Below, one piece after another: positions 1-56,105 of a stretch of 64,000 bases of DNA. The notes below the pieces were generated by a model, which was not told where the DNA came from, made no database searches, and worked only from the letters and a program-made list of their open reading frames with translations. How positions within the stretch are numbered: the stretch's first letter is position 1; the number at the start of each line of letters is the position of its first letter. Position numbers and translations under genes: made by a program. Origin of the DNA: Cetorhinus maximus (taxonomy: Eukaryota); NCBI RefSeq assembly GCF_964194155.1, contig NC_135890.1, positions 39,990,001 to 40,054,000 of the forward strand. Direction: 5' to 3'.

Positions 1-363
1 GGTGCCGCCAAACTAAAGAAGTTTGAAATTTTAACAAAGAACATTTTAATGAGGAGTGTGTAAAAGCAAAGGAACTATGTTCTGTGGAGTTTGAAAGAAG
101 ACTAATCTTTCTGGCAAGTTCACCACATAAGAAACAGAAATTTGTGAAGATACTGCTACAACTGTTTATAGTGCTACTGTTTCTTGTTTCATGCTGTGAA
201 TAAAAATGTTAAATGAAGGTCAAATTGTAAAAGATTTTACCTAATTTGCTATATTAATCCTAGCTGTACAAGAGCTGTCCCAGCTCAATATCACCCAAGT
301 ACATATTTGCAAAATAATCATAATCCTGATGTTTTATTGCATTTCCATGACTAAAGTATTCAC

Positions 364-2278: not shown

Positions 2279-3246
2279 TTGGTAAGGTAAATAGCTGAGT
2301 GGCAAGAAACAGAGCAGAGATAATGGGCACATACACTAATTGACAGACTGTGCCTCGTGGTGTCCCTCAAAGAACAGTGTTTGGGTCTCAACTATTCACT
2401 GTATTTATTAACTACTTAGATGATGGGATAGGAAGCCACATATCCAAGTTTGCCTATGGCACAAAGATAGGGGCATTGCAAGCAATGTCGATGGAAGCAT
2501 AATATTACAAAAAGACAGTGAATGGGCAAAACTGTAGCAAATGTATTTCAATGTTGGCGAATATGAGATCATCCATTTTGGATCTAAAAGAATGGAACAG
2601 GGTACTTTCTAAATGGTGAAAAGCTAGAAACTGGAAGGTCAAAAAGACTGATGTTGAGATGAAAATGTCATGAGCAGATACAGAAAATAATGAAAAAGGC
2701 TAATGAAATGCTGGCCTTAATATCTAGAGATGGGCAATATAATGGGGATAGAAGTCATGCCTCAGCTATGCAAAGCTCTGGTTAGACCACATCTGGAGTA
2801 CTGTGAGAAATTTTGACTTTACACCTTAGGAAGGATACACTGACTTTGGAGAGAGTGCAGTATCTGGACTCCAAGGGTGAAAATACAAAGAGAGATTAAA
2901 CAAGCTAGTATGTATTTCCTGGAATTTAGAGGTTAAGGGGTGATTTGCTCAAATTTTCAAGATATTATGGGGAACAAATAGGGTGGGTAGAGAGAAATGA
3001 TTTCTGCTGGTTGGGAAATCTAGGACTGGGGTTATTGTCTAAAAATTAGAGCTAGACCTTTCATGAGTGAAATTAGGAAACACTGCTCACAAAGGGAAGT
3101 ATAAGTTTTGAACTCTCTTCCACAAATTGCAATTGATGCTAGATTAATTGTTAATTTTAAATCTGATTGAAGGCACTTTGTTAACTAAAGATGTTAAGGT
3201 ATATCAGGTCACAGATCAGCCATGATTTCACTGAATGGTGGAACAT

Positions 3247-3672
3247 TGTGTCAGCTGTGGCTCAGTTGGTAGCATTCTTACAAGGTTCCGGGTTAAAGTC
3301 CCACTCCAGGGCTTGAGCACAAAAATCAAGGCTGACAGTCCAGTGCAGTATTGAGGGAGCATTGCATTGTCGCAGGGGCTGTCTTTTGGATGAGACATAC
3401 CAAGGCCCCATCTGCCTGCTCAGGTGGATGTAAAAGATCCCATGGCACTATTTTGAATAACAGCAGGGGAATTATCTCCAGGGTCCATGCCAATATCCTT
3501 CAATAAACACCACAAAAAACAGATTATTTGGTTATTTTCACATTGCCGTTTGTGGGAGTTTGCTAAGTGCATATTGGTTGCTGCGTATCCTTCATTACAA
3601 CAGCACTTCATTGGTTGTAAAGTGTTTTAAGACATCTGGTGGTCATGAAAAGTGCTATATAAATCCAAGTTT
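3247..3672 (+). mobile_element. tRNA-derived SINE with Deu-domain-like core (SacSINE1/AmnSINE-type)
   Basis: A-box TGGCTCAGTTGG, B-box-like GGTTAAAGTCC, core GTCTTTTGGATGAGAC...AAAAGATCCCATGGCAC, tail GCTATATAAAT. Related copies at about 29940-30330(-), 30545-30965(+), 32085-32345(+) and 61420-61830(+). Confidence 0.7.
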
Positions 3673-3785
3673 TTTTTGTAAAATAGGCCTGAGGGGCTAA
3701 ATAGTCTACACCTGTTCTCATGTGCTTATAAACAATATAACTTTCAATATTTACAGAAGCAGAATGATTATTAAGTTTATCTTAC

Positions 3786-3903
3786 CTTTGTGGACAACCA
3801 CAGTTCAAGTCAACACCATCTGCAAATGGAGAAACTATACAAGCAGCATCAGCTAAATCCTGTGCATGATTAGCGGCAAACTGCACAACCAGTGGACGAT
3901 CAA
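3786..3903 (-). CDS. DUS4L: DUS4L coding exon with catalytic NCGCP motif
   Basis: Encodes (V)DRPLVVQFAANHAQDLADAACIVSPFADGVDLNCGCPQ(R), including the dihydrouridine synthase NxGCP motif. CAG acceptor, AG|GTAAG donor, phases fit flanking exons. Confidence 0.95.
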
Positions 3904-4769
3904 CTGTCGAATAAAGTGCATGATATGTCAGCATAGAGCTTCCCTTTAAACCATTTCTGTCATGATTAATTAGTTTCTATCTCCTTTGGTTTGGCACCTT
4001 ATACCTAACAATATTCTTGGTACAGAAGGTTGCTAATTTGTGCTCCAAACCTAACAAACACTGAGGATTCTGTCTGGTCATTATTTGGAGATGCAACAGA
4101 TACAATTCTATTCTACCACACCAGATCATCAATACGTTCTAGAGGGATTCCTCTAATGGAACAAATCTCTATGTTAGAAGGTTATGGGTTTGAATCTCAC
4201 TCTGGATAACACAGGTGAGCAGAGATAAGAATCTCTGAATATGGGGCTCACGTCCAATGGAAGTGGATTGGCAAATCCCCATCACATCTAGCCCTTTTTC
4301 TTGGTAAGAGTTGTGAGTTGGGCTAATGACCAGTCCAAATAAATAGGGACTTTATCACAGAAACAACCCAGAGAAGGATCTGCTGGATGTAAAGCCGTGG
4401 AAGAAATGCGTTGCCTCATGTGGCATAGCGTGGATGAAGAATTCTTCTATAATATATTTTCACATTTAAGTTCCAGCTCTGTAAGCTACACCCCAAGTGT
4501 AAATGACCTCAGCTGCAGTGAACCACTGGCATAGTAAACCTATTTAAATTTAAGCCTATACACCTTTTGGATGAAGCAGCTCTTATCATGCAATTAAAAT
4601 ACGAGGAGCCAGTCTTACAGATTTACACTCCTCTGCAACCACACCAGCAGATTCCAGCTGCCCTACTGAGAAAGAATAAAAAACTGCTTTTATTTCACTC
4701 CTTTTGGATCCTTAGGCCATCTCAAAGTGCATTCCAACTAGTGGGATACTTCCAAAAATAGTCACTTGT

Positions 4770-10196: not shown

Positions 10197-10551
10197 GTAA
10201 GGGTGCTCACCTACAGTTATCAAGACAGGCTGTTGCGGGGGTGGGGAATATATTCCAACACGTCAACCTTTCAAAGAGTAAGCCTTCGGTTACTCGATTT
10301 TCGACTGCCTTTTCCCAGTGGGTTCAGTGTTTTTGATTGCACTTATTCTTGTGACCATACTTTGGTGCATACATTATGAATTATTAAAGAATAGGGGAGA
10401 GGAAGAGTGTAAATAAGTAGAATCGATTTTGCATAAATCGAGTAGAATTGGACCTTACTGGAGTTTGTTGTAGACGACCCCCTCATAATGAAAAGTTTTG
10501 CATCGAATCTACATTCACAATGTCACTATTAACAAGACATGTTAAAGCTAG

Positions 10552-10654
10552 AACAAAATAAAAACAGAATTACCTGGAAAAACTCAGCAAGTCTGGCAGC
10601 ATCGGCGGAGAAGAAATCAGTCAACGTTTCGAGCCCTCATGGCCCTTCAGCAGA
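10552..10654 (-). mobile_element. Young 103 bp Penelope-like terminal fragment with hammerhead-like motif
   Basis: Flanked by the 15 bp direct repeat ACATGTTAAAGCTAG (10537-10551, 10655-10669). Identical over the shared length to the arms at 31540-31735. Confidence 0.88.
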
Positions 10655-13492
10655 ACATGTTAAAGCTAGGCCTTCACTGGTTCAATTAACCACTACTGAG
10701 TTGACCGTTCTGCTTGGCTGAATTATCCCAGAAGCCGTTACCATTCACGACACATGGGAAAACTTTCAAAAACAGTAATAAATAATAAGACCCACCAGAT
10801 CACCTAATTAAACTGTTGAAATTTTGTCCAAACCTAGCCTTCTGCAAATCGAGTGCTGATTTGGTCAGTGCATAATATCATCAGTACTTTTGTCATCATT
10901 TTAAGCTAATCGGTGTACACAGCTAAAATTATTTTTGTGATCAACATTTAATGAAGTTAGATAATTCTGCTAACATCACTAAATTTACTATAGTATTGGC
11001 CATTAATATTAGAAATGCATGCAAATGTTTTTCCGTATATAGGCCTATGCTTTTATTTGGAGATTAGGTGCTGGAATTTCCAACCATTGCTGATCAAGGT
11101 CTGTGTTGGGAGAGGTGGATCATGGGAGTTGTTGTGTGCTTCTGCCCAGCACACATCAAAACAACCTATATCATGAGAGCCGAGTACAAATTTTCAACAA
11201 GTTGCATTTCTGAACAGGACGAAGAAAATCACATTTTAAAATTTTATATAATTTAGACTTAAAATTTTTGTTTTGTAATTTAACAGTGTTTGCAATTAGT
11301 TTTTTTATGCCCCTGAGGGAAACCAATGTTTGAGCCACCGGTGAAGGGAGATTTATTTGACTCTAGCTGCAATAGGAGCATTAATACCAATCAGGCCCAG
11401 CCCATGGATAGTGACTACTTACTAACATTTTGGAGTTTGACAGTGATGAATTCCTTTTAGTGCTAGACCAATGAAAGCTTCAAGAATTACAAATCCAGTG
11501 TAAGAAGGAAACATTTTCTAATTATGTGCTGGGGAAAGAATGAAGGATTTGGGGAAAAATAGCGAGGAAAAATCAAATGTAGCAATTCCCTTTTGCATTC
11601 CCTGCACCTCTCCCCACAACCCACCATATCCTTTGTCCCACTATTAACGGCGCTGCCTTTAGCTTTCTAGATCCTTAGCACTGCAAATCTGTCTTTAACC
11701 TCTCTGGCTCTCCTCGCAGCTCTCCTTTAAGCTGCCTCTTAAAATCTACCTCTCTGACCAAGCTTCACTTGTCCTAATACCTCCTTGCTGGCACTGTCAA
11801 TTTTTGTCTAATTATTCTCTTATGAACTGCTTTGAGATGTTTTACTATGTTAAAGGTGTTATATAAATGCAAGTTGTTCCATCTTAAGACTTCAAATCCA
11901 GCGTCAGAAGTACAGCAACAAAGAAAGTAACTGTGAAGGAAAGGTTTTAGGGAAGGCAGAGCAAACAATGTTTCTTACTTAACAGGATGTTTAAAATATT
12001 GTAAAATAGCATTACAAAAAAATTTGAGGCCATTGTCAGTACCTGTCAGGAATATTTTTACTGAGTGCTGCAATATTACGAATTTACTATCATTTTAGGC
12101 TGCTGCTGCATTAAAAATCTGAAACCTCCCACTTGTGAGCATTGTTATAGGAGATCAACTGGTTATCTATCATTACACAATGGTGAATTTCTATGCACCA
12201 TGCCATCCAGGAAAAAAATCCATCTTCAACGAGTTACATATCAGCAGATTCAACATTTAACATGTCCGGCGTAATAATCAAAAAAACCAGCAGTGCTAAG
12301 TCACAACGTAAACTTTGGAATTCAAATTTAACTCTTAAATCATGCGAAGATGTTAGTTGCACTTCAGTGCTGTGTTTGTGAAATGCAAGGTAAGTATCAA
12401 AACCCTGTGAGTAATGCAGAAAAAAGGTGCTGATCCTTGCTGTGAGGAAAGGCTGGAAAAACTCTAAACCTTCAACTTAATAAACTTAATAATATCGGAT
12501 TTCAATGACGTACAAAAACTAGGTGGAAAAGCTTTAAGCTGGAACATTATTTCAAGTCAAACCACTACTGTACTACAATGGGAATGAAAATACAAACTGT
12601 AAAAATTCAGGCGTACTGTAACATCAGGAAGCATTTCTTCAGGCAAATGGTGATTGATATTGGAAACATAAATTTCAAAATGTTAATTTGTGTTTTTTAC
12701 ACTGTTGTGTGGGGAGAAAACATGGCACTTGCTGTTTGTCATTTAGTCAAATGATTAATGAAGAAATAAACTTGTAATATCCAATGTTAATTTCAGTACT
12801 AATAAATTGTATATCTTTCATATCTAAAGCTTGTAAGTTAAATGTAAAGAACAGTGTTTTTCACTGGCTACTAGAGTAATAATTCTGTATTTCGTAGTAC
12901 AAGTGAAAGCAATTGAATATGGATTAAGGAAGATGCCCAGTCAAATTGGTGACAATGATGCTCCTGGATTGCCATTTTATTTGAGATGAAAGAATAATGC
13001 TTATTTGCATTGAAGTTTGATTTTTTTTTAAATGTATCTGATCAGTATTGGTTTGATATGGTACTTGTCTTGTGTCTGTCATCTCCTAATATTTGTTCTG
13101 CACAATTTTCCTCACTTCTTGCTCCACTATTTTATGTGGCTGTTGGTTCTCTTATAGATTTTACAGATTAAGCTGTATATATGAAGTATCAAATTGACAT
13201 AGGATTAGTGTAGGATATCAACTGTACAATGAAAAACGATATTTAAAAAAAATCACGACTGCACAAGAACAGGACCGCGTGTACTCTATCAAATGTTCCC
13301 TTGTATTTAGAATTTCATTGATTTAATAATTGTTCATAGGAGTGGTATGGAAGAAATTCATAGGTAAAATACTTAGTCCAAATTAATATTCGTTTACTTG
13401 TTTTTCTTCACATGTCACATGTCACATTTTATATTTGTGACTTAATTTGTTATTTCAGTGAAATATTTACAAGTACACTTAACTTTTTTCAG

Positions 13493-13632
13493 AATGCTAT
13501 ACAGACTTCTTGAAGGAAGAATTTGATGTAAAGACCTATACTGCTCAATCCATTCACCAAGCAGTAATAGTTGAACAATTGGCAAAACTTGCTCAAGGAA
13601 TTAGTCAATTGGATAAAGAACTTCATATACAG
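13493..13632 (+). CDS. COG5: COG5 exon 2
   Basis: (E)[46 protein letters not shown]; TTTTCAG acceptor, CAG|GTAAC donor. Confidence 0.95.
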
Positions 13633-14696
13633 GTAACATAATGGTGTTTTTCTGCTATATGGCTGCTATATCTTAAAGTTTTATGAAGCAAGTGAGGAGC
13701 TTATGAGCTCTCCTAGAAATTCTACTAAAATGGTTGGCTTGGCTGACATTGTGCAGAGCTAACCATGTCTCATCCATGAAAAGTTAAAGCTTTGCATAAC
13801 AATGATAGTTTACCCAACATGCTAAGTATCCCAACAGAGTGGACTATGGGTGTCAGAAAGAAAAAGGCCTCTATCACTGTCTTCCCTGTCATTGCAGTGC
13901 TCTCAGTTTGGGAATTGTATCCATCAAGCTTGCAGGAAGTTACATCATTTTATTGTGCTTGAATAAGAAGGGTTGTGTTTCTGTTTTAGAAGTTTATTTC
14001 TGAAATTCCGGAGGGTGATTTTCTTTGCATAACTTGAGAATGCTTAGGAAAATAATATTTTGAATGGCGACTATTGATGTTGTTGCTCACATGGTTCTTA
14101 GAAAAGGGCCTATTTTATTGGGAAAAACCAACTGATCTATTCCTACTACTTGTTCATTTTTAGAAGGGAAAGTAAATTTCAGAAGTCTGGACTGGATTCC
14201 AGGTACGAAGAAGTAAGGACAGTAATCTAACCAAGTTGTGCACTATGCCCCCTAATAGACATGATTTTGAATCCTTTCTTCAGGGCGTACTTTGGTTCTT
14301 GAGACTAGACAATCTTGAATTTTAATTTATTTGTTTCTTTCCTCTCGCACAAGGAATTTTTAAGTGGAGATTTCTAGTGATGTCCAGAAGTTGTGGATTT
14401 TTATACCAATCAATTTGATTGTTAATGCTTGAGAATGACCACTTTTCAATCTCTGGTGTTCAGTGCCAACACGAAAGATAGTTATATTGGGTTAGACATA
14501 AAGTGAGCGGCCTTTATTATTATCCCAATGATGCACCTTAAAACTCAACCTCATAAAAGGACTGACTTTTGCACCAATTTAATTCTTTGTCCTGAGATGA
14601 CCTTTATGAATTAGATTGCTAAATTAGATTTGGGTTTAACGTAGTATGGAGTACCCATTGCACAAGATACCATGTTAATTAACATATGCTTTTCAG

Positions 14697-19808: not shown

Positions 19809-20481
19809 GTATACCATATTAGTATACACCTGCACATAAGAGATGTACATTGATCATAAACCTTAGGGGCTTTTAGATTTCCCCTCCCTCCCAGTTAACA
19901 AAATTCCGACGACAATCCGTTAGTTACAAAGCTGCAAGTTTCAGGGCATATCCTCAGAATGGATAAGAAACTGGTTGAATGAGAACCCTGAGTCATGTTG
20001 GGTGGGTGGAAATACTGAGTGGGCTCTGTGTTTGGCTCACTATTGTTTGCAGCTTGCATTCAAGAACAGCAACTTATGTTTATATAATGCCTTTAATATA
20101 ATAAACTGAGCGTAAATGACCTGGATTCTGAAACTCAACAGAAAGGGCTAATTTTGCTCATTTTACTATATTAGGAAAGAGAGTGGAAATGGAGGAGGTG
20201 GTGAAAAAAAAAACTGAATAAGTTGGGTAAAATATGTGTGGCCAGTACAATGGCAGAAGAAACAAACATACTGTATGAGTGGCCTTGAAATACGTAAACA
20301 TGAAACTGAAAAAGACCTTGCTAGACTCTCTGATAAAGCTATACAACTAAATTTCTCAAAAGGAGAAATGAATGCCACTTTCAGTATAAATAACATTCAG
20401 ATGATCGTATATTGATCATGGTGGTGCAGTTGAGTTGCAGGTTATAGAGTACATGATACCAAGAAGTGGAAGGTCACATAT

Positions 20482-21390
20482 AAGCAGAAAATGCTAGAAA
20501 TACTCAGCTGGTCAGGCATCATCTGTGGAGAGCGAAACAGAGTTAATGTTTCAGGCTAATAATCTTCCATCAGAACTGGGAAAAGTTAGAACTGTCTTAA
20601 GTTGGTGAAAGGGATGAGGGTGGGAAAAAAACAAAAGGGAAAGTCCCTGATAGGAAAGAAGACAAGAGACATTAAATGACAAAAGAGTTAGTGAAGCAGA
20701 GTCAAAGGGAGTGGTAATCCGACATAAAAAAACAAAAGATGTGTGTAGAGGAGGTGTGAATGTCAGAATAACGAACAGATGCCGTTCAAAAGCCAAACAA
20801 CAAGAGTAAGACCAAAACATACAAAGAAAAGGAAACCAATGGGGGCAGAGGTTAGAATCTGAAATCGTTGAATTTAGTACTGAGTCTGGAAGGCTGTAAA
20901 GTACTTAATCAAACGATGAGATGCTATTCCTTGAGCTTGTATTGAGCTTCATTGAATCAGTAGGCCGAGAACAGAGGGGTTAGCATGAGATCAAAGTAGA
21001 CAATTAAAATGCGAGGCTGTTGGAAACTTGGGATTGTCTGTGGACTGAACGGAGGTGTTGTGCAAAGCAGTCACCCAATTTGTTTGGTCTCTCCAACAAG
21101 AAGACCGTGTTGTGAGCAGCAAATACAGTATGCTAAATTGAAAGAAGTCCATGTAAATCTTGATATGTTTAACCTGGAAGTATGTTTGGGCAATTGTGGA
21201 GTGGACCAAGGTATCATGGGGAATAGTCACTTCAGAATGCTAAAAGGAGAGTGGAGGGGAAGATATGTTTGGTGATGGCATCACACTGGAGGTGGCAGAA
21301 ATGGCAGAGGATGATCCATTGAATGTGGAAGTTGGTGGGTTGAAAACTGAGGACAATTGGAATCCTGTCGTGCTTTTGGGAAAGAGAGGG
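20482..21390 (-). mobile_element. Penelope-like element remnant (GIY-YIG endonuclease region and terminal repeat)
   Basis: Minus strand carries a decayed YC.CS..GLL..GETK...GD.FA.HLRSV pattern. The terminus contains CCAGTT-CTGATGG...GAAAC-ATT-AACTCTG. Confidence 0.8.
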
Positions 21391-28610: not shown

Positions 28611-31539
28611 TCACAAGAAATAGGAGCTGGAGCAGGCCATGTGGCAATTGAGCATGCTCCACCATTCAATATGATCATGGCTGATCTTGGGCTTAGCTTC
28701 ATTTTTCTGCCCGCTCCCCATATTTCTTAATTCCCTGAGAGACCAAAAACTTGTCTATCCCAGCCTTAAATGTATTCAATGATTGAGTTTCTGGCTATGC
28801 CAACATTTATTGCACATCCCTCTTTTGCCCTTGAGAAGGTGGTGGTGAGCCGCTGCCTTGAGTTGCTGCTGTCCATGTGGTGCAGGTACACCCACATGAT
28901 GGGAGGGCATACAGACTTTAAATGAGTTTAAGCTTGTGAAGGGGTGTGGTGGAAAGGAGGCTGGTTAGAAGTCAGATTAAAACTTGAGGTAATGATGGCA
29001 TGAATTCAGGTTTTAATTGGAGACAGAAACCAAAAAAGGAGGTCTCCTTTTTTGACAGCATTAAGCAAGAAAATATTTATACTGTTTTTCTCTCCTGATC
29101 ATTATCAAATCTTGTCAGATTGTTATATTCCCTCTGAGCATCAAGATAAGGGGAAAAAGACGATCATGAACCATGGCTGTTTCATGACAAAAATCATAGA
29201 ATGATGTAGCACAGAAAGAGGCATTTGGCACGCTCTTGAGCAGCAATCCAGTTAGTTCCACTCATAGCCCTACAGAAGCTTTCCCCTTCAAGTATTTATC
29301 CAAATTCATTTCGAAAGTTATCATTAAATCTGCAGTGCAGTACATTCCAGATCATCATAACTTACTGCATAAAGAGAAAAAAATGTTTCCTTATGTGGCC
29401 TCAGGTTCTTTACCAGTCATCATGACAAAATATACACGGGTTGGTTGGTGTGCCTTGTAACCTGTGCAACACCCAGATCCACGGGCAAAGGAAAGGAAAT
29501 ACTTAAAATGTGTCCGTGTTACTTTATAATCACTATTTATTGCTGACTACAAATTTTTGCTTTAATTTACTTTTCATTCCAATCTGATTATTGTATTGAC
29601 TCCCCAGTGTCTCCTGCTGACGCCTTTTGAATTAAATAAATATCAACCATACCACCAGTAAATAGATGTAATTGCATATTTTGACTCTCATAAAATTTGA
29701 TCTGTTCTACTGATCAGAGAGTGAAGCAGTAGGTTAGCATACTTGCTGATTATTTCTAGATTGAAATGTTTAATTTATTTAGTTGATACATACCTGAAAT
29801 CTGGTTGAACTACAAAATGTCTGTATTGAACATTTTTTTCCATTTGCCCTTTCTACATCAAAATAATCTGAGGTGAAATCTAAGGTAGAATTTCAGTGTA
29901 ACTAACATTGTGTGAAATTTTAATATAGCAGCAATACTTGTAAGCTAGCATTTATATAGCCTCTTTTAATATACAGTAATTATCCAAATATCTCCAAAGT
30001 TTTCACAACACCGTGCGTTGAACCTTTTTAAGAAGGCAAATGTGGCAGTTGTTCTGTGCTAGTCATAACCTTATCAGATGCGTTGCTGGCCTTGTTTTTA
30101 GTGGCATTGATTTGAGGGAGGAATGTCAGGTAAGACATTTGGAGAACTACCAGCTCTTCTTTGAGCCATGGGATCTTTAATGTTTACGTTACCTGATATT
30201 GCTTTAATGTTTCATTTGAAGGATGGATTCTCCAACACTGCAGTATTCCTTCAACCTATATGCAGTTAACTGCATGTATTGGAATTGAACTCAAAGCCTT
30301 CTGACCAGGAGCATTTGACCCAAGCTCAGACCAGCTTGATACGTTCCTTGGTCTTAAATCGGTTCTGCAGTTGTTTGCCAAATGTGGCTTGTAAAAGGAA
30401 CAACTATAGAATGAATCTTTAAGTCTTCAGCTCTCAAAGTTTATATGTTATGTTTGATCAAGGGGTGTTTTTTAATTTATGATGTTCAAAATGTGCTTGA
30501 AAGGGGCAAATATTGTATTGGAATGTGTTTACATACCTGTTGGATTTGGCTCAGTCGAGGCTGAGTCTGGCTACTGACTCAGAAGCTTGTGATCAAGCTC
30601 TACTTACGTAATCTAAACTAACTTCACTATACTATTGAAGAGGTGCTACATTGCTGGAAGTGTCATTTTTTGGATGAGTTGTTAAACGGAGGCCTCACCT
30701 ATCAGTTCTGGTGGACGTCAAAGATTCCAGAGCAATATTTACAGAAGAACAAATATTTCTGCCAATCTCCTAGCCAACATTCCTGTCTCAAAAGCACCAC
30801 CAAAACATACACTCTGGCTGTTGATCTTACTTTTTTTATGTTGACAATTGGTTGCAACGTTTATTACAAAACAGTGTCCAAAGTTCATAAGTAAATAATT
30901 GGCTATGAAGCACTTTGGAACATCCTCGGGACACAATAGGCGCTGTATAAATGAAAAGTTCCTTCTTTACCTTTCACTGTGTTGAATAGGGAAGATTTTC
31001 TTATTTTATTCTTTCATGGAATGTGGGTGTCACTGGCAAGGCCAGCATTTGTTGCCCCTCCCTAATTGCCCTTGAGCTGAGTGGCTTGATAGGCCAACTT
31101 TGCAGACAGTTAAGAGCCAACCACATTACTGTGGATCTAGAGTCACATGTAGGCCAGACCAGGTAAGGATGGCAGATTTCCTTCCCTAAAGAACATTAAT
31201 GAACCAGATGGCTTTTTACAACAATCAGTGATAGTTTCATGGTTTCATAATTTCACCATTACTGAGCCTAGCTTTCAATTCCAGATTTTATGAATTGAAT
31301 TTAAATTCCACCAGCTGCCATGGCGGGATTTGAACTCCTTACCCCTAAAGCATTAGCCTCGGCCTATGGATTACTAGTCTAGTAACATTACAGCTACGCC
31401 ACTGGTTCCCACTAATTGGTGAAGTTATAATTGAACCTTGGACTATTGGATACAATTTTGCAGTTAAACAGTAATATTTCAAATTAGGAATAGATTTGCC
31501 CTCTGGGAAAATTATTTGAGTTGACTTTGATTTGGGCAT

Positions 31540-31785
31540 AATAAAAACAGAATTACCTGGAAAAACTCAGCAAGTCTGGCAGCATCGGCGGAGAAGAAAT
31601 CAGTCAACGTTTCGAGCCCTCATGGCCCTTCAGCAGAACTGCTGAAGGGCCATGAGGGCTCGAAACGTTGACTGATTTCTTCTCCGCCGATGCTGCCAGA
31701 CTTGCTGAGTTTTTCCAGGTAATTCTGTTTTTATTTTGTTTTGGATTTCCAGCATCCGCAGTAGCTTTTAGCTTTTTGTTTTTAT
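31540..31785. mobile_element. Young Penelope-like inverted insertion forming a perfect palindrome
   Basis: 97 bp arms (31540-31636, 31639-31735) around an AA spacer. 15 bp TSD CTTTGATTTGGGCAT at 31525-31539 and 31786-31800. Confidence 0.93.
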
Positions 31786-32559
31786 CTTTGATTTGGGCAT
31801 GGCTGGCAAATCACTTAATTAGTTAATTCTTATAAGATTAGAATAGGAACTTGTACAGGTAACATGAAAATTATGACCTTTCATGCAATTCATTAAAAAT
31901 AACTGCACTAATTCTGATGACTCTGTTGCTGGATGAAACTTGGTATTTGAATCGCTTATGCCTGAGCTTTCCTTCCCATACAGAACAATCTTGTTAATTC
32001 AGTTACAGGGTCAGATGTGGCTTAGATTTCCAAATCACGGCTCAGATGGCAGAATTATTGCCTCGATATTCTATCAAATCCCTTCTTGCCTCCTCAGGTG
32101 AACGTATAAGATCCCAGGTGCTGTTTTTGAAGTAGAGCAGAGGAGATATCCCTGGTGTCCTAGCGAATAGTTATTCCTCAACCAACATCACAAAACAGAT
32201 GATCTTATCATTGTCACGTTGCTGTTTGTGGGAGCTAACTGTCTGCAATTGGTTGCCATGCTTTGTTCATTACAACTTTAAAAAGTACTTCATTGGCTGT
32301 AAACCATTTTGGATCATGCTATGGTTGTGGAAGGCATGATATGTCTTAAGTTGCGAGCAATACTTCTCCACTTTGTGATTCAAAGACTGGTATTTTATGG
32401 TGCCAGATATATGTTGTGCTGGAGCCATAACTGTAACCAATGTGGATGTGATTTCAAAGTTCTCATGGTATATGTAAATTTTTCTACATTAGGGATTGCA
32501 TCTTGCTTGTGTATTTGTATGGCAACCTAAATTTCGTCAATTTACTTAGATGAACCATA

Positions 32560-33495
32560 TAAATATAAACAGAAAATGCTGGAAATACTCAGCAAATCTG
32601 GCACCTTTTGTGGAGAGAGAAACAGTTAATATTTCAGATCTGTGACCATTGATCAGAAGTGAGTATAGTTGGAAATGTAATCAGTTTTGAGCAGGTTGGG
32701 GGGGTGGGGACAGTGCAAGTTGGGAAGAACAACAAAAGAGAAAGTCTGTGAATGAATGGAGACCAGGAGGGATTAAATTACAAAATTAATTTTGGAGCAA
32801 GGCCAAAGAGAGTAGTAATGGGACAAATAAAGAAACAAAATATGTGCCCAAAGGAGCTGTGAATGGCATGATAGCTGCCATATGAACGCAAAGTAAAGAC
32901 ATTGAGAAAGAAATAAGAGAACCAAACCAGCAAAAAAAGTGGAATCAAAATGTGGAATCAAAAATCAAAATTTGTTGAACTCAGTGTTGAGTCCAGAAGG
33001 CTGTAAAGTGCACAGCCGAAAGATGAAGTTCTCTTCCTCAACCTTGCATTGAGCTTCATTGGAACATTGTAGCAGGCCAAAGATAGAAAGGCCCAAGTAG
33101 GTACAAGTTGGAGAATTAAAATGACAGGCGATTAAAAGCTTGGGGTGGTATAGCTTGTGGACTGAATGGAAGCGATCAGCAATGCGGTCTCTCAGACTGG
33201 ATTTGGTCTCCCCATGTTGAGGAGACTGCATCATGAGCAGCAAATTCAGTATATACTAAATTGAAATAAGTATAAGCAAATTGCTGTTTCACTTGGAAGG
33301 AGTGTTTGGGGCCTTGGATGGTGTGAATGGAGTAGGTAAAAGAAGTTCCGTCTCCTGCGCTTGCATGGAAAGGTGCCGTTGGAAAGGGGTGTTGGAGCGC
33401 CTAAGGAGTGGACCACGGTGTCACAGAAGGCATGGTGGAGGTGGCGGAAATGGCAGAGGGTGACCAGTTGGATGTGGAGGTGGGTGGGGCCCTCA
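32560..33495 (-). mobile_element. Penelope-like element remnant
   Basis: ORF GETKSSLRDRIADRFHSV...ACHFNS...KVEEENFIFRLCTLQPSGLNTEF (GIY-YIG C-terminal half) and the AAAACAGAAAATGCTGGAAATACTCAGC terminus. Confidence 0.85.
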
Positions 33496-33992: not shown

Positions 33993-35231
33993 TTATCTTT
34001 TTCTTTTGGGATCTAGCCAGGAGTTGTGGATTACTGGATTATTAGGGTTGGGATCAGCCTCAGTAATTGAGACCACTTTCTTTTTCATTTTATTTTTGAG
34101 GACTTTTTGGAACTTTTGCCTTGCAAATGCATATAGTAGAGGATGGAATATAGTTGTTCCATAAGCCATGATTAAAAAGCACAGTCTTAATTTTACTATT
34201 ACATCATCTAGACCTTTATATAATATAACAGTATTTAAAACTGATATAGGTGTCCAGCAAAAAAGAAAAGTTGAAATAATTAAAAGTGACATTCGGAAAA
34301 CCCTTTTTTGTCGTTCCCGCCTTTCACGATGGCGCTTAACAGCTCTTCTTAGAGCGATTATTACTGAGACTGAAGTTCTTACTCTTAGTATTACATTGTG
34401 TCCTCTGTTACTTTCTGATTGATCAGTATTCTCATGTTGTATGACTAGTGGTATGGTCTTTTTTCCCTTTGTTTTTTTCTGCCTAGTGGAAAATCGTGAG
34501 CCTATTTTGATATTCAGCGCTTGAAGTATTTTTCTGTAGGTTATCAACATTACGATAGCAGTGAAAATAAAGATGGGAATCTGCATTAGAAGGTGGTAAT
34601 ATATTCCCAGTTCATTATGGTATTCATTTACACCAATGCACAAGAGTGTATTATTTTGCCAGGTGTTTTCATTGCTTTGTAGACGAAAAAAGCTGACTTC
34701 AATGAAAGGGATTGTAAATGCGGAAAAGGACACAATCCACACTGATGTTAGTAATGTTATTGCTCTTCCCATGGTCAAAATCCGATTGGCTGGCTTAACC
34801 GAAATGTCATAACGATCCAGAGTGATTGCAAGAACATTTACTGAAGTTGCTACACTAGCAAAAGAAATACAGGCTTCATGGAAATTGCAAATCAAAGCTG
34901 TTTTGCTTTCTAGCGAAATAAGAGTGACAATTATTGTAAGAGGAATGCATCCAACACATATAACAACATCCAGTATGTGCAAATTCATAGTGATAATATT
35001 ACTGACTGAATTAATCAGGTTTGACTTCATACAGTAAAGTACCAATACTGTTAAGTTGCTGCTGAGTCCTAACACAATTTCTAGTAAGAAAAATCCAGTA
35101 AGGGATGCCTGAAAACTTGCTGGATAGGGTAGAGTCCAATATGCATTGCCGTTGATATTATAAATCTCATCTCGAACTGTCAAATTGATTTCAGAATGCA
35201 TGGTGACTTGTAAAATAAGATGAAGACACAT
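33993..35231 (-). CDS. GPR22: G protein-coupled receptor 22 (class A orphan GPCR), nested antisense in COG5 intron 6
   Basis: 412 aa ORF with seven hydrophobic segments, DRY, CWTP and HPLLY motifs, and the GPR22-typical RRAVKRHRERRERQKRVFRMS. Splice acceptor TACATTTTCAG at 35262-35260, 28 nt before the ATG. Confidence 0.96.
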   Translation of the reverse strand: MCLHLILQVTMHSEINLTVRDEIYNINGNAYWTLPYPASFQASLTGFFLLEIVLGLSSNLTVLVLYCMKSNLINSVSNIITMNLHILDVVICVGCIPLTIIVTLISLESKTALICNFHEACISFASVATSVNVLAITLDRYDISVKPANRILTMGRAITLLTSVWIVSFSAFTIPFIEVSFFRLQSNENTWQNNTLLCIGVNEYHNELGIYYHLLMQIPIFIFTAIVMLITYRKILQALNIKIGSRFSTRQKKTKGKKTIPLVIQHENTDQSESNRGHNVILRVRTSVSVIIALRRAVKRHRERRERQKRVFRMSLLIISTFLFCWTPISVLNTVILYKGLDDVIVKLRLCFLIMAYGTTIFHPLLYAFARQKFQKVLKNKMKKKVVSITEADPNPNNPVIHNSWLDPKRKR

Positions 35232-42127: not shown

Positions 42128-43796
42128 CTGAAAATGTCTAGTGAAAGTAGCATGCTGCAGCCTTCTGCCTCTGGAGATTACATTTGGATTTAGCCCGTTT
42201 GGAGTGGTAAGGCAGCATGAAGTAATTGTGGGCGGTATTCATCGAATGACAGGTTGACTCATTGCCTCTCTTTACTGCAGAGAGTTGCAGTGTATGCATT
42301 TGTTTTGATTTGCTAACCATAATGGATTTGTCCAATTCGTTGTGCAAAGGGGTGTGTTTTTTCTCTCCAAGTTCAATAAACATTTGATTTGGTAACTGAG
42401 AAATCGTTTAAAAAAACAAATACATTTGGGGTCCAATTGACCTAGAGAGAAAAATATTAGCTGCATTGATGGCAAGTCTTTCAAAAATAAATCCGTAACT
42501 AAAATTTTATTGACTTCCTCTTGAAATTAAATTCTTTTTAAGCTAATTAAATATTGTGACCAAGTGTAGCTCACATTCCTTTCACAGTTACATCTTTACA
42601 ACAAAATTATATATCTTGCCTGGGAGATGGTAATTATTTTGCTGATGGCCATTTCATCAATAATTTAGTCTAGTTGCCTAGTTACACTGAAAATATTTTG
42701 TACATTTGTCACATCTCATGATAGGAGGTCTGCGTACACTGTATTGGGTAACTGAAGGTAATTATTTCTTCTTGACAATGACCAGGTGAAACCATGAGTA
42801 AAAATTTTTTGTCTGATAGTATGAGATGAAAATGTTTATGATTGGTAACACTCAAGTCACTGATCTTAAATTTGAATATCATATGGTATGTATAAAGCAC
42901 AATAAACATAGAAAAAAAATTACTTCTAAAGGAGTTTTAAGATAAATGAGAGAAAAATGATTCTAGTTATTCTGTGAAAGATTAAGATTAATTACTTTTT
43001 AGATAAATTTGAGTTGTATTTCCAGAAATTAGCCTGCCATTTTTAAGAAAGTGCTGTAAAATTGCTCATTAAACTGTTCAGGTTTAAACGCAGCAATTGA
43101 TTAATTGATTTATATTTGACCTGTACTGAAGCAGTATTACGTCAAACTTTGTTGCCCTGCAAAAATTAGATGGTCATGTTTAATAGAATAGCTCTTAAAA
43201 GGATGAAGCCTGGACCCCTGGAGACATTATTAGCCATGAATGGCTTACAGACTGGTTGATGGACTGGACTGACTCAGGGCAGATGAAATTCATTGCAGAA
43301 AAGTGTTGCAGTTATATATCTTTTACAAAGTATTTACAGTAAAGAAAGAGGCCCAACAGGTCGATGCCGGTGTTAATTCTCCACATGAACCACCTCCCAC
43401 CTCTTTACATCTAACCCCATCAACAAATCCTTATATTCCTTTCTCCCTTATGTTTATCTACCTGCCCCTTAGTCACATCCTTCTTGAGGGTAAGGAAGTT
43501 TCTCTTGAATTTCCTATTGGATATGTTAGTGATTATCTCATATATATGACCAAAGCTCTGTCCCCCACAAGTGGAAACATCTTTAAGTCTAGTCTTTCAA
43601 ACCCTTTCATAACTTTAAAGACCTCTATCAGGTCAGCCCTCTTCCTCTTTCTAAGTGTAAAGAGCCTCAGTCTGTTCAGTATTTCCTGATAAGGAGGCAC
43701 ATTTCAGCAATGCCATTTTATTTGGTGCTTGAGCCATAATATAAGTATATATAAATTTAAAAAATATAAGGGGATGGATAAACTTAATTCATGTGA

Positions 43797-44320
43797 AGTA
43801 AAAACAGAAAATTCTGGAAACACTCAACAGGTTGGTTAGCATCTGTCGGGAGAGAAACGGTGTTAATGTTTCAGGTCAATGAGTTTTCATCAGAGCTCAA
43901 AGATCTTGGAGAAGAACAGCTTTTAAACAATTACAGAGCAAAGGAAAAGGGGTGGAGGGAAAGCACAAAGGAGAATGATCTGTGATACGGTGAGCGCAGG
44001 AGTGATTAAATGGTAAAATGATGATGGTGCAAAATCCCATTATGGGATATTACTGTAGAAACAAAAGATAGTCCAGAATAAATGTACAGCAGAATAACAG
44101 AGGTGAAGGAAACTGACGAATCTGGCAATGTGGATAGGGTTGTCATGCCCTGTGAATGTGGAGGAAGAAAGGCAGCTACCAACAGGGCATGCCTAACCCA
44201 AGCAACAACCCACACATCTTCCATTCCGAATGTCTCTGGTCAGACATACTCCATTATCAGCATCTGTTGTCTGGGAGAAAGTGGGAGTGGTTGTTCAGAT
44301 TTAAAGCTATTAAACTCAAT
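43797..44320 (-). mobile_element. Penelope-like terminal remnant
   Basis: TAAAAACAGAAAATTCTGGAAACACTCAACAGG terminus; minus-strand CTGATGA...GAAAC-ATT-AAC. Confidence 0.7.
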
Positions 44321-45745: not shown

Positions 45746-45878
45746 CAGCTCTGAAGAAGAGTCATATGGACTCAAAACATTAACTCTGTTTCTCCACAGA
45801 TGCTGCCTGACCTCCTGAGTTTCTCCAGCGTTTTCTGTTTTTATTTGAGTTCCAGCATCTGTAGTATTTTGCTTTTAT
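45746..45878 (+). mobile_element. Short older Penelope-like terminal fragment starting at the hammerhead motif
   Basis: CAGCT-CTGAAGA-A-GAGTC-ATATG-GACTC-AAAAC-ATT-AACTCTG...GCTTTTAT, with near-TSD TCTTCCCTCA / TCTTCCTCA. Confidence 0.75.
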
Positions 45879-46568
45879 CTTCCTCATCTATTGTGAGTTC
45901 TTTATTTTTACAAAGAACACAACACTCTTTATCACCCACGTTTTGTTGATAGAAAATGTAAATCATTCTAATTAATGAAATATTTCAGTCAGGAAAGAAA
46001 GAGAGGGCGAAAAGAAAATAAGTGCTTACTGAAAGCAAAATGATGACTGATTTATTGATAAATCTGACCTACAATTAATGTGTCTTTAACCCAGAACTTT
46101 GAGCCGATGTCCTTTAGTTCAGAATGGGTATAACTTAAATTTCCTGAAAGATGTGTGATTATCTTTTATTGAAGAACTACCCATCACACTGGTCAGATGA
46201 ATATATGAACTATTTTTATTGAACCCTGTACACGCAGAGCATTGTCTTAAATTTTGTTTGAAAGTTGAATGGAGGGAGTTAATTCTATGGTGGACCTACA
46301 ATGCCGAAGTATGTAAATTGAGGAATGCTGCCCACAAGGTTAACTGATACAGAGAATGGAAATATCATACTGATGATTCTTAGAGGATGGAAATAAATGT
46401 ATTAGTGGAGAAATTGCTTTGATTTCTATGTGTAACAACATCATAACTAGATATATTTATTGGAGCAATTATTTCCCCATTGTTGATAAATTATCAAGAA
46501 AATTTTATATATCTCATTTGTGAAATAAATAGTTACAAAACATTGAAAAATGCTCAATATTTAAGTAG

Positions 46569-48020: not shown

Positions 48021-49529
48021 AATTCAACCAGATGTAAACATTCAGCGTGAACATCTGCATCAACAGAAAGATGGAGTAATCATCATGATAGGTTTTAGTG
48101 AAAGATACTGTAGTTCCAGTTATACTGGTAGTTTTGAGAGAGATTTTTTAAAAAGTCTTCATTCACTTGAATTTATAAAAATTGCAGTTGCAATAATGGT
48201 TACAAAAGATACAGGGTACATTGTGCATACTTTACAGCTAGATAATCAACCTGCAGATGACCTTCCCGCTTTTTAAGAAAAAGGGAAAGCAATTTTAAAA
48301 GGTTTAAAAGGAGATTTAACAGAGGCTTTTAACATTATGAAAAATTTCGATAGTCAATAAGGAAAAGTTATTTCCTCCCATTTGGGGAGTAAGCGATGAG
48401 AAATTTAAGAGCGAGGCAATAGGTTGGGAGACATTTTTTACACAGAGGATTGTTCTACCTTGGAATGTTTTGATACAGGAAATGGTTGAGGCAGAAAATT
48501 GCTTTTAGAGAAATAGGAGAAACATTTAAAACCAAGAAAATAGGAAGCTATGGGGATGTCACTAAACAGTGGGAACAGTTTTGTATTTTTCTAGAAAAGG
48601 ATGGGTCCAAATGCGATGGACTGAATGGCTTTTTGTTGTGTTGAAAATATCTATTGTACAGGGAAATCATTTCCACAAACAGCCAGGTTAGATATTAAGT
48701 TATCAGTAACGATAGCATTGGTTATTAGCTACATTTTTCCACCTAGTTGCAGTCAAGTTAATTTTGGAAATGTTTTCCTACCTGCCATGATCTGTTACCA
48801 TTTTATAATTGGCATCACAGTTTACCATCCTTACTCTGTTGAACTCAACAATGTAAATAAATACTTTATTATGAAAGCGAGCTTTGACTTGAAAAAAGGC
48901 AGCGGGCTGTTAATTCTTTGCTTATTTTACCAGCCTCATTAAACACTTGACATATTTATGGTAAGTGGTTCTGTAAGGTGAAACTAAAATGTTCAGCCAC
49001 ATCTGTGTTAATAAAAGCATTACTCAAATCTATTAATCTTTTGTGATTTGATGTTTTAGCTCATCAGCACTATCTTTGTGTAAAGAGAAGTAATCCTTAA
49101 TGCCTAATTCATTAATGCTAGCAACTGGTAGTTGGATGTGAAATCTAAATGAGTGGTAAGATTCTTGTTTAACACTCCTTCCATATTGTGTAGGCTCCTG
49201 ACCTCGGTTTAAACATTTTGGCTAGAAACAAGGTACGATCCCTGAATGATAAGAGGACAGGAGTTAAATCAGAAGAGAGTTAAATTGTGCAAAAGCTCAT
49301 AAGATGGTTATTTCCCATCCAGTTGGTTCAGATGGATGCATGTGCATGGTACAAATTTTAAAGGGATGTTTATGCCAGTTAAATAAGTCACTAGCCCTCG
49401 GAAATAACACCGATGCATGAAAAAGGGACATATTCTTTTGTGCACATGCTTTTCACCATTACTCATGATCCAATATTTCAGACCAATAAGCTGCTTTGTC
49501 ATCAGAAGACCTAGCATAAAAATGATGCA

Positions 49530-50700
49530 AATAGAAATAGAAAATGCTGGTAATACTCAGCAGGTCAGGCAGCATTTGTGTGGAGAGAAACAGAGCTAAT
49601 GTTTCAGATTGGCCTTTCATTGGAACTGGGAGAAGATAAAGATCTAATAGGTTTTGAGCAGGGGGTGGCTGGGATGAAGATGAAAGAAAGGCCTGTGGTA
49701 GCATGGAAGACAGGGGAGATTGAATGACAGAAGCGTTAGTCTTACAGTGCCAAAGGGAATGTGATAGGGCAGGAAAAGAAACAAAAGATGTGCTTAAAGC
49801 AGGTATGCTGCTGTCTGAAAGCAAACAGAGAAAAACTGAAACATGCAAAGGAAACAAAATGGTGGGGACAGAGTTTACAGTCTGAAATTTGTTGAACTCA
49901 GTGTTGAGCCTGGAAGGCTATAAAATGCCTGATCAAAAATGAGGTGATGTTCCTCAAGCTTACGTTGTGCTTCACTGGAACAATGCACAGGCCAAGGGCA
50001 GAGATGTCAGTGTAAAAGCCAAGTGAAGAATTAAATGATATGCCACCAGAAGCTTGGGGGTTATGCTTGCGGGCTGAATGAAGATGTCCCCCAAAGGGTT
50101 CACCTATCCTGCATTTGGTTTCCTTAATGTAGAGGATACCACATTGTGAATAGCGCTTACAGTAGACTAAATTGAAAGAAGTTCTCCTAAATTGCTGCCT
50201 CACCTGGAAAGAGTGTTTGGGGCCTTGGATGCTGAGGAGAGAGATTATAAAAGGGAGGTGTTACATTTCTTATGTTTGCATGGAAAGGTGCCGTGGGATG
50301 GAGACAGGATGTTGGGGGCGATTGAGGAGTAAACATGGTATCAGGGAGAGAATAGTCCCTTCGGAATGCTGAAAGGGGAGGGGAAGATGTGCTTGATAGT
50401 GGCATCACGCTGGGGGTGGCAGAAATGGCAGAAAATGATCCATTGAATACGGAGGCTGGTGGGATGAAAGGTGAGAACAAGGGGATCCTATCTTGGTTCT
50501 GGGAGAGAGGGGAAAGGATGAGAGCAGAAATGCAGAAAACGTGGTGGGGGGAATCCTCGATTGAGGAAAAAAGAAGACATCTCAAGTGCTGCTGTAGAAG
50601 GTTGCATAATCAAAATAGATGCGATGGAGACGGAGGAACTGGAAGAATGGAATGTGGTCCTTACAGGGTTTAGGATGTAAGGAAGTGTAGTCGAGTTGGC
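49530..50700 (-). mobile_element. Penelope-like element remnant
   Basis: ORF SFNLVYCKRYSQCGILYIKETKCRIGEPFGGHLHS (GIY-YIG) and QDRIPLF...LSAFRRDYSL (linker), with the typical terminus. Confidence 0.85.
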
Positions 50701-54120: not shown

Positions 54121-55117
54121 AGTATATCAGCTTAAATAATGTGCTTTCCTAGATTGGGGCTTGAACCCATAACCTTCTAACTATGAGACAGAAGTGATAC
54201 CTGATGATCCAAGTAAATGCTAGAGGTAACAAGATATGTTCCTATAGAGAACATAAATTGAGGTATATGGAAAGAAGGTGGTGATTAGGTTTGGTTCCAT
54301 TCAATCAACACAAATTGGCCAAATACATTTTCTCTGTTCATTAAAGTTCATGAATGAAGTTCTTGTGACACATTTTCCCTTCCAGATCTGGCACAGTTGT
54401 GCTCCTGATAGTAAATATATGTATTGAATTGCTGCAACCAACCACAATAGTTTCCTCATTTACTTGTATTGAAGTAATCGTATGGTAGAATTACAGCTTG
54501 ATATGCAGGAGATGATAGCAAATAGTAGGTGTGAAGACATGTAAAATAAAAGCAAAATCCTGCAGGTGCTGGAAATCTGAAATAGAAACAGAAAATGCTG
54601 GAAAAATTCAGCAAGTCTTGCAGCATCTGTGGAGAGAGAGGATCTAGAACGAGGAGTTACTGTTTAAAAATAAGGGGTCGTTCATTTAAGACAGAGATGA
54701 GGAGAAATATTTTCTCTAAGTGTTGAGTCTTTGGAACTCTCTTCCTCAAAAAACAGTGGAAGCAGAGTCTTTGAGTATTTTTAAGGCAGAGCTAGATAGA
54801 TTCTTGATTAACAAGAGGATGAAAGGTTATCGGGGGTAGGCAGGAATGTGAGGTTGAGAACAAAGAACAAAGAAAAGTACAGCACAGGAACAGGCCCTTA
54901 GGCCCTCCAAGCCTGCACCGATCATATTGCCTGTCAAACTAAAACATTTTGTACTTCCGGGGTCCAAAATATTTTAGTTTGACAGGCAATATGAGGTTAC
55001 AGTCAGATCAGCCATGGCCTTATTGAATGGTGGAGCAGGCTCAAGTGGCCTGCTCTGAATTCGTATGTTAACGTATTGAAGAGCCAGTTTTGAAGATGAG
55101 TCATATTGGACTCAAAA

Positions 55118-55400
55118 ATAAAAACAAAAAGCTACTGCGGATGCTGGAACAAAGACCACCACCTTCAACACCTCTTTGACCCTTTTGTCTCTGACATCTT
55201 TTGATTATCTGCTCACACCACACCCTCAATGTGTCTCTTCCCCCCCACCCACCTTAAACCAATTTATATTTCTCCCTTGTTGAAACTATGCTTCAGTTCT
55301 GCCGAAGAGCCATGAGGGCTCGAAACGTTGACTGATTTCTTCTCCGCCGATGCTGCCAGACTTGCTGAGTTTTTCCAGGTAATTCTGTTTTTATTTTGTT
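55118..55400 (+). mobile_element. Young Penelope-like insertion with inverted 32 bp terminal segment
   Basis: 12 bp TSD TTGGACTCAAAA (55106-55117, 55401-55412). Only two substitutions relative to the 31.6 kb right arm across 55299-55400. Confidence 0.88.
55293..55335 (+). ncRNA. Minimal type I hammerhead ribozyme-like motif (variant C6 core)
   Basis: Stem I UCAGUU/GACUGA, core CUGCCGA+A, stem II GAGCC/GGCUC, then GAAA, palindromic AACGUU in place of stem III, and predicted cleavage triplet GUU ending at 55329. Activity untested. Confidence 0.65.
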
Positions 55401-56105
55401 TTGGACTCAAAACGCTAACTCTGTTTCTCTCTCTACAGATGGTGCCAGATCTGCTGGGTTTTTCCATCTTTTTCTTTTTTTGTTCACAAAAACATGTGGT
55501 TGGTATACTTTTACAAAAGAATAATTCGAGGAAAAATTCTAGGTGTCTAAAATGTGATTAAGCAAGTTTTGCGAGTGATTTAATTGAACTCCCATTGATT
55601 AACAAAGCAGAGTAAAATTCACATTATCTAGATATGTTGCCATTCTACTCAGTGGCTATTTTGGAAGGTTAAATGTCATTTCATCAGAGACTTTTAGCTT
55701 TTATAATTTACAGTGCAGTGTGGAAATGACCTTTACATCAAACGGAAAAACCGTGTATTCTTCAAGAACTTGAACTAAGTGTAGCAGGCTAATGACTTCT
55801 AATCAGTATGAAATTACTTCAGATCTTGATAATGCTCCTTCATTGTGTCCTGTTTCATATGTAAGAGGAAAAATCATACTGAGCCAGTGAATCAGCTGTA
55901 ACATTGCATTGTTGTGAGGATAATTGCAGCAAATGCTATAATTGCATGTATTGTATAAAAGGGCTATGTTAACCTTGTCAGTGGACAAGATTTACCATAC
56001 TTTAAAAGGAACTTTTGAAAAACAGTGACAGGATTCTAATTCAATCCAAATTAAATAATGTTTTTAAGAACATTACAGCCTCTGAGGACTAAATATGTAC
56101 ATATA

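Follow-up and report, generated by a model that had tools for sequence, protein, structure and literature searches.

A palindromic insertion of a young Penelope-like retrotransposon in a shark genome and a possible origin of both its arms from one RNA

Introduction

How can a single retrotransposition event leave a perfect palindrome, and were its two arms copied from one RNA molecule or from two? This question is raised by the segment 31525-31800 of the window, by which we mean the whole analyzed stretch of 64,000 nucleotides from Cetorhinus maximus. The sequence-only reading of this DNA saw here one Penelope insertion, primed on both strands of a staggered cut, and supposed that two RNA molecules paired as a hammerhead dimer had been the templates. 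How inverted insertions with a one-sided tail arise in Penelope-like elements (PLEs), and whether the hammerhead cuts in vivo, are questions left by the available parts of the PLE literature (PMC8557442, PMC11167929, PMC4209133). In a young family with thousands of copies both of them become countable tests.

Structure of the insertion

Two exactly complementary arms of 97 bp (31540-31636 and 31639-31735) are separated by AA, the motif TGTTTTTAT stands at the end of both, and the right arm is extended by 50 bp. The 246-bp insert lies between two copies of the 15-bp target site duplication (TSD) CTTTGATTTGGGCAT (Table 1). All these features had been noticed from the letters and were found as claimed. 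That they were made by one retro-insertion is borne out by the single TSD pair round the insert and by the empty site in a related organism, where single contigs from two studies (run X5 record 13 and run X9 record 29) join 31524 directly to 31786 with one TSD copy. The supposed Penelope origin is supported by an intact 3.3-kb parent with reverse transcriptase (RT) and GIY-YIG. Segment 31525-31800 is one insertion of a young Penelope-like retrotransposon.

With the C of CAGTT as position 1 of the element, the window copy consists of positions 102 to 1 (minus strand) joined to 6-152 (plus strand). The AA spacer is not foreign, as the left arm, read on the minus strand, runs on through AA and CTG to the start of helix I (CAGTT).

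Table 1. Components of the insertion, in positions of the window
Feature	Position	Strand	Evidence or remark
Left TSD copy, 15 bp	31525..31539	+	Single copy at the empty site, runs X5/X9
Short arm, element 1-102, ending at the short (S) start site	31540..31641	-	S ends cluster at 94-109
Minimal type I hammerhead, complete	31601..31641	-	Sequence; compensatory change in helix II; architecture as in the available part of PMC4209133
Inversion centre, AA + 3-nt CTG overlap of the arms in the quasi-palindrome CAG-AA-CTG	31637..31641	.	Sister copies
Long arm, element 6-152, ending at the long (L) start site	31639..31785	+	L ends cluster at 144-157
50-bp "tail" between the two start sites, on one arm only	31736..31785	+	Tail described in the available parts of PMC3846280, PMC8557442, PMC11167929
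Right TSD copy, 15 bp, first 5 nt CTTTG matching the element's continuation	31786..31800	+	Empty site

None of the contigs listed spans the whole insertion and the arms are identical, as would also be the case if the palindrome were an artefact of assembly or of a fold-back read. However, the unique flanks are not inverted, the TSD corresponds exactly to the empty site, and run X2 has a contig, with 0 differences, whose first base is 31780 and thus lies 6 nt inside the right junction. Private arm mutations, moreover, are present in older sister palindromes. We therefore give an artefact hardly any credence.

The insert RNA folds in silico as a perfect hairpin of -198 kcal/mol, and the folding of the plus arm alone is not unusual (z -0.44). 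The only other perfect inverted repeat in the window (at least 14 bp, spacer of at most 30) measures 22-23 bp with a 27-29 nt spacer and lies at 54922-54994.

The position relative to GPR22 was given correctly in the sequence-only reading: its ORF (33993-35231, minus strand), whose nearest named homologues are shark proteins, lies about 2.2 kb from the palindrome. COG5 was recognized only by a weak exon match upstream, at 13504-13638 of the window (E 0.018), which is the best COG5_N match of the genome.

The window holds other copies of the family. A single-arm sister (10537-10669, minus strand; element about 3-107; 15-bp TSD) used only the short site, and its start lies at the 5′ edge of the hammerhead. 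A sister inverted insertion at about 55109-55413, with a TSD of about GGACTCAAAA, has a short long-site arm and a sense arm from about -141 to 107, and it sits within an older copy of a related hammerhead repeat. Such insertions into the same or related hammerhead repeats (L025, L133 and window 55095-55480) point to a possible target preference. Older relatives of the repeat end, 72-79% identical, occur at 45756-45881, 54548-54635, 32561-32635, 49529-49575, 20478-20531 and 43796-43843.

Parent element and family

The intact parent is a unit of 3,291 bp. Its single ORF of 917 aa, found in L061, L062 and L065, encodes RT and, at its C terminus, a GIY-YIG endonuclease; Pfam gave E 6.6e-07 for RVT_1 and E 6e-04 for GIY-YIG, the latter match being under its cut-off, and found no RNase H domain in this ORF. 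The endonuclease is preceded by a CX4CX2C linker (CPRRRCNTC), and by this linker alone the element agrees with Neptune/Nematis as defined in the available part of PMC8557442 (CX2-5CxxC between RT and endonuclease). The features of endonuclease-bearing (EN+) PLEs are present: the single RT + GIY-YIG ORF, the tandem or partial-tandem pLTR units with an inverted 5′ copy and a tail (unit and arm maps), and a hammerhead motif in the pLTR. On the element map the hammerhead takes up positions 1-41; the short site lies at about 94-109 and the long one at about 144-157, and the ORF begins at 190.

The 41-nt arm motif has 6,296 exact matches in the genome, from which we estimate roughly 3,000-4,000 insertions, and the genome contains hundreds of like palindromes; as a locus, 31525-31800 is ordinary, one of these hundreds. 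Like palindromes with a TSD of their own were recorded at about 40 loci (40 candidates scored of 739). They are near-identical and 250 bp long, and the 48-nt centre of 31525-31800 has 11 exact copies, as might be expected if a palindromic master copy were transcribed and mobile as a SINE-like unit. Yet the short ends vary over 94-109 with microhomology to each target, the centres vary widely and contain untemplated bases, and centre types are shared between sequence variants. These per-site junctions largely refute a palindromic master, which we regard as very improbable.

Non-LTR retrozymes are defined, in the available part of bioRxiv 10.64898/2026.07.22.740005, as tandem non-coding hammerhead repeats. 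The hammerhead units here are not head-to-tail; they form a head-to-head pair within one TSD, and the parent is coding. At locus L074 units of about 267 bp from the element's 5′ region (about -23 to 256) are repeated in a short tandem array, which looks retrozyme-like.

Two further observations concern single loci and subfamilies. In L062, element positions 82-126 contain a donor-like site CAG/GTAATT and two acceptor-like CAG sites flanking the short site and the tail, so that a retained intron is possible from the sequence. Of the 49 sampled palindromes centred on position 1, 40 belong to an older subfamily (L081-L129) that has a GUC triplet and the compensatory change in helix II.

Hammerhead motif

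The minimal AACGUU hammerhead named in the earlier reading is present in the element. It is made up of helix I CAGUU/GACUG, the core CUGCUGA, an extra A, helix II GGGCC/GGCUC, GAAAC and AACGUU, and is predicted to cut after GUU, between 31606 and 31605. There is no helix III loop, AACGUU or AACGUC is kept, and helix II shows a compensatory change of C-G to U-A between subfamilies (variant table). In place of the canonical CUGANGA the core is CUGCUGA or CUGCCGA, that is, A6C, which was counted in 216 of 234 motifs of the loci analyzed, with redundant loci among them, and is nearly fixed across the lineage. The Rfam scan of the window gave no match at gathering scores, the hammerhead falling below them. 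A6C (C6) hammerheads occur naturally and are weak in Mg2+ and active in Mn2+ (PMC7151607, available part).

The motif is of the type that, according to the available text of PMC4209133, works only as a dimer, and the missing loop together with the kept AACGUU/AACGUC favours two RNAs joined through this sequence, each templating one arm. When two hammerhead copies were cofolded, the AACGUU dimer was not the minimum-energy structure, a result that is uninformative for a weak and possibly protein-assisted motif.

Pairing of the two ends

For the unbiased survey we took the first 100 listed matches of the 41-nt motif, in the first 57 Mb of contig C1. They represent 72 insertions: 38 clean inverted copies, 29 without a detected adjacent inverted arm and five complex loci (L064, L074, L149, L152, L167), which were left out of the counts. 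All 38 clean inverted copies combine a long end with a short (or shorter) one. The same pairing was found in three sets selected by their centre, namely in 50/50 (the first 50 of 74), 48/49 (49 of the first 50 of 262) and 12/12 (the non-duplicates among the first 15 of 235), so that it holds for 148 of 149 inverted copies, the five complex loci apart. No long/long copy exists among the 149. Short/short ends were met with at two of the loci set aside, L064 (across an N gap, with identical flanks) and L152 (65-nt gap, no TSD).

Among single-arm copies with a TSD of at least 11 nt, seven of eight used the short site alone. The 81 copies with a TSD (mode 14) have mean microhomologies to the target of 1.54 and 1.38 nt at their two ends, against 0.36 and 0.39 by chance. 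Thus both ends look primed, as the earlier reading had held, and each insertion appears to have been built at its site.

Where inversion centres lie

If the two cDNAs were joined where copying ended, what do the inversion centres tell about the template? The claim that these centres are not placed at random is upheld by a genome survey, whose major peak lies at the hammerhead's 5′ edge. Equal-width windows contained 7 symmetric centres at about -26 to -18, 235 at +4 to +11, 11 at +21 to +28 (one sequence variant only) and 74 at +33 to +40. Centres are also spread over the whole 3.3-kb element, and that at 31637-31641 belongs to one hotspot among them. One centre-selected set has its arm ends between -2 and +6, a reach limited by the search pattern.

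Stalling on RNA structure should place the peak at the hammerhead's 3′ edge, so a peak at the 5′ edge is likelier to reflect an RNA 5′ end. The hotspot carries TTCAGTT, which we take to resemble an initiator and which also resembles a splice acceptor; in D. virilis, helix I is where an intron ends (PMC4209133, available part). As to an extra G derived from a cap at position 1, one variant carries a template G there.

Arm ends of the second peak fall most often on position 37, directly behind GUU (24/100, with 1 at 38 and 6 at 36), and the overlap there is mostly 0-1 nt. Part of this peak is explained by microhomology, since 26 of the 100 arm ends near position 37 fall on the 6-nt palindromes AACGTT and GTTAAC (positions 31 and 34). 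Judged from the sequence, the peaks at the 5′ edge and at the cut site likely mark RNA 5′ ends, and the latter hints that cleaved RNA is sometimes copied and that the A6C hammerhead cuts in vivo; the minor size of this peak fits the weakness of A6C in Mg2+. Copies whose arms both start at or after the cut site would come from template RNA without AACGUU and still combine long with short in 50/50 cases, a result that speaks against inversion by way of the hammerhead dimer.

A second hotspot near -141 was considered and dropped: its 36 pattern matches are, by their spacers, mostly other repeats, with a handful from the Penelope-like family.

One RNA or two

In 19 of the 38 inverted copies of the survey the inner ends of the arms lie at most 20 nt apart (permutation mean 3.2, maximum 10 in 20,000). 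Without the position-1 hotspot there are 11 such copies of 30 (permutation mean 1.3), and where both inner ends lie beyond -150 there are 4 of 20 (0.55 expected, p 0.0007). Matched ends are found at arbitrary positions, such as -578/-594, -1041/-1056 and 52/52, and their junctions mostly show an overlap of at most 2 nt or inserted bases; annealing of palindromes therefore does not explain them. An arm ending at position 1 is never paired with a long arm (0/38), while eight copies have both arms at position 1.

The arms also agree in sequence. Over 22.9 kb of overlap, 41 copy-specific variants are common to both arms against 89 private ones, and of 97 non-CpG polymorphic sites the arms are concordant at 91 and discordant at 6. 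No subfamily chimera was found among 48 informative mini-palindromes, although the subfamilies may differ in age. Shared variants would fit two RNAs of one source locus, later gene conversion or assembly polishing as well.

A symmetric complex of two RNAs should yield short/short and long/long ends and independent inner ends, and this is not what was found: there are no long/long and almost no short/short copies, long is paired with short in 148/149, and the inner ends are correlated even deep in the element. The mutants of the hammerhead had, in addition, no effect on insertion in vitro (PMC11167929, available part). Two joined RNAs would need no strand displacement, would give unmatched inner ends naturally and, if transcribed from one locus, would carry the same variants. 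On balance the part of the sequence-only reading that invoked two RNAs and a hammerhead dimer was not supported, and we consider it unlikely.

Another possibility is that one cDNA folds back and primes itself, or that an antisense RNA does so, as proposed for rotifer palindromic junctions in the available part of PMC3846280. Identical arms and matched inner ends would then be obtained in one step, and CAG-AA-CTG is able to form a mini-hairpin. However, fold-back from the long-arm cDNA predicts TT centres only and never a longer short arm. The centre of 31525-31800 is AA, its 17 sister copies of this centre type include 11 AA and 6 TT, and the short arm reaches more than 20 nt further in 11/38 copies (the long arm in 8/38). 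At base level the further-reaching arm is split 19:18, 18:24 and 7:5 in the centre-selected sets. The use of the short site alone by single-arm copies, including window 10537-10669, also speaks against fold-back, and a peak at the cut site of a sense-strand hammerhead does not fit an antisense template. We hold this explanation to be distinctly improbable.

Against priming on one RNA stand the 19/38 inverted copies with unmatched inner ends, in which one enzyme must have stopped early or its product must have been trimmed. Copying one RNA twice would also require strand displacement, and Pfam showed no RNase H domain in the ORF.

In six long symmetric palindromes (L072, L073, L075, L076, L166, L036) the arms show 0 private differences over 2,793 nt, and asymmetric palindromes hold most of the 89 private differences. 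This suggests loss of old perfect palindromes, homogenization or polishing. In L111, L114 and L098 A>G changes are common to both arms, including GAAA to GGGA in two subfamilies, and may come from edited templates. A-to-I editing as a mark of single template molecules was dropped, because A>G is not enriched among shared variants (5/41, unbiased set).

Proposed mechanism

The simplest reading of these data keeps the double priming of the earlier one and puts one RNA in the place of two. From the genome sequence of one assembly we judge it rather probable that inverted insertions arise when both ends of a staggered cut are primed on the same single RNA, one at the short site and one at the long site 50 nt further 3′. 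The RT-endonuclease of the element, probably as a dimer, would cut both strands about 14 nt apart; each cut 3′ end would pair by 0-5 nt with a U-rich site and start a cDNA, and the enzyme at the long site would come behind it, displacing the short-site cDNA. Synthesis of the two cDNAs would end at one common RNA 5′ end, which in this copy is the hammerhead's 5′ edge and likely a transcription start, while a minority of templates likely begins at the hammerhead cut site. The two cDNAs would then be joined end to end, and here CAGAACTG could pair with itself, leaving AA or TT. The observed basis comprises the structure, the TSD, the empty site, the intact parent, the long and short pairing, the correlated inner ends and the shared variants.

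The more general proposition is that Penelope-like insertion is double priming on one RNA, with a dimer placing one DNA end at each of two fixed sites, and that the insertions record template 5′ ends, so that transcription starts, RNA breaks and in-vivo A6C cuts would be mapped in the genome. We regard it as evenly balanced between true and false. If true, it would explain the inverted pLTR, the one-sided tail and the junction palindromes together; target-primed reverse transcription would gain a variant that makes two overlapping cDNAs from one RNA, and shark genomes would be supplied steadily with perfect palindromes.

Comparison with known systems

In LINE-1 twin priming both target strands prime on one RNA, which produces an inversion within one TSD, and the stretches of RNA that the two cDNAs cover essentially do not overlap. 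The insertions described here are similar in the proposed priming by two strands on one RNA and in the inversion inside one TSD. In contrast, their arms overlap almost fully, which gives a palindrome and sets them apart from the L1 type, and both arms start at fixed sites.

The inverted structure itself is not new: the available parts of PMC3846280 and PMC8557442 report inverted pLTRs, palindromes at the junctions and a tail on one side. The one-RNA mechanism, the long and short pairing, the matched inner ends and the genomic cut-site peak were not found in the literature searched, in which subscription journals are thinly covered. With the EN+ elements of these two papers the shark element shares the ORF with RT and C-terminal GIY-YIG, the tandem units forming pLTRs, the inverted 5′ copy, the palindromic junctions, the tail at one end and the one TSD round the whole. 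It differs from those described there in that both arms measure just 100-150 bp, 148/149 copies have a tail on one arm and none on the other, and inner ends and variants are linked between the arms. The available parts describe the structure, and self-priming on an antisense template is put forward as the mechanism (PMC3846280) or the matter is left open.

The hammerhead resembles the metazoan minimal type I motifs of PLEs, as far as they are presented in the available part of PMC4209133, in its short helix I, the extra base before helix II, the G10.1-C11.1 pair, the palindromic positions 15.2-16.2 and the absence of loop 3. In this putative ribozyme, unlike the natural A6C hammerheads in the available part of PMC7151607, A6C is nearly fixed across the lineage.

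The closest functional counterpart for comparison is PAc, the protein of an Anolis Poseidon element, which in the available text of PMC11167929 cuts and extends both strands in vitro, is predicted to dimerize, does not need an active hammerhead and has two RT start sites that delimit the tail. The shark element likewise has two internal start sites just downstream of the hammerhead. The available PAc text ties the two sites neither to the two strands nor to inverted insertions; a supplementary figure of that paper, on how cut sites and start sites are related, may be relevant to the pairing. According to that text the target has no homology to the start site and no reads fall on the cut site, whereas the shark element shows mean microhomologies of 1.4-1.5 nt and its arm ends have a peak at the predicted cut site. 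Unlike PAc, it also carries the CX4CX2C linker before its endonuclease.
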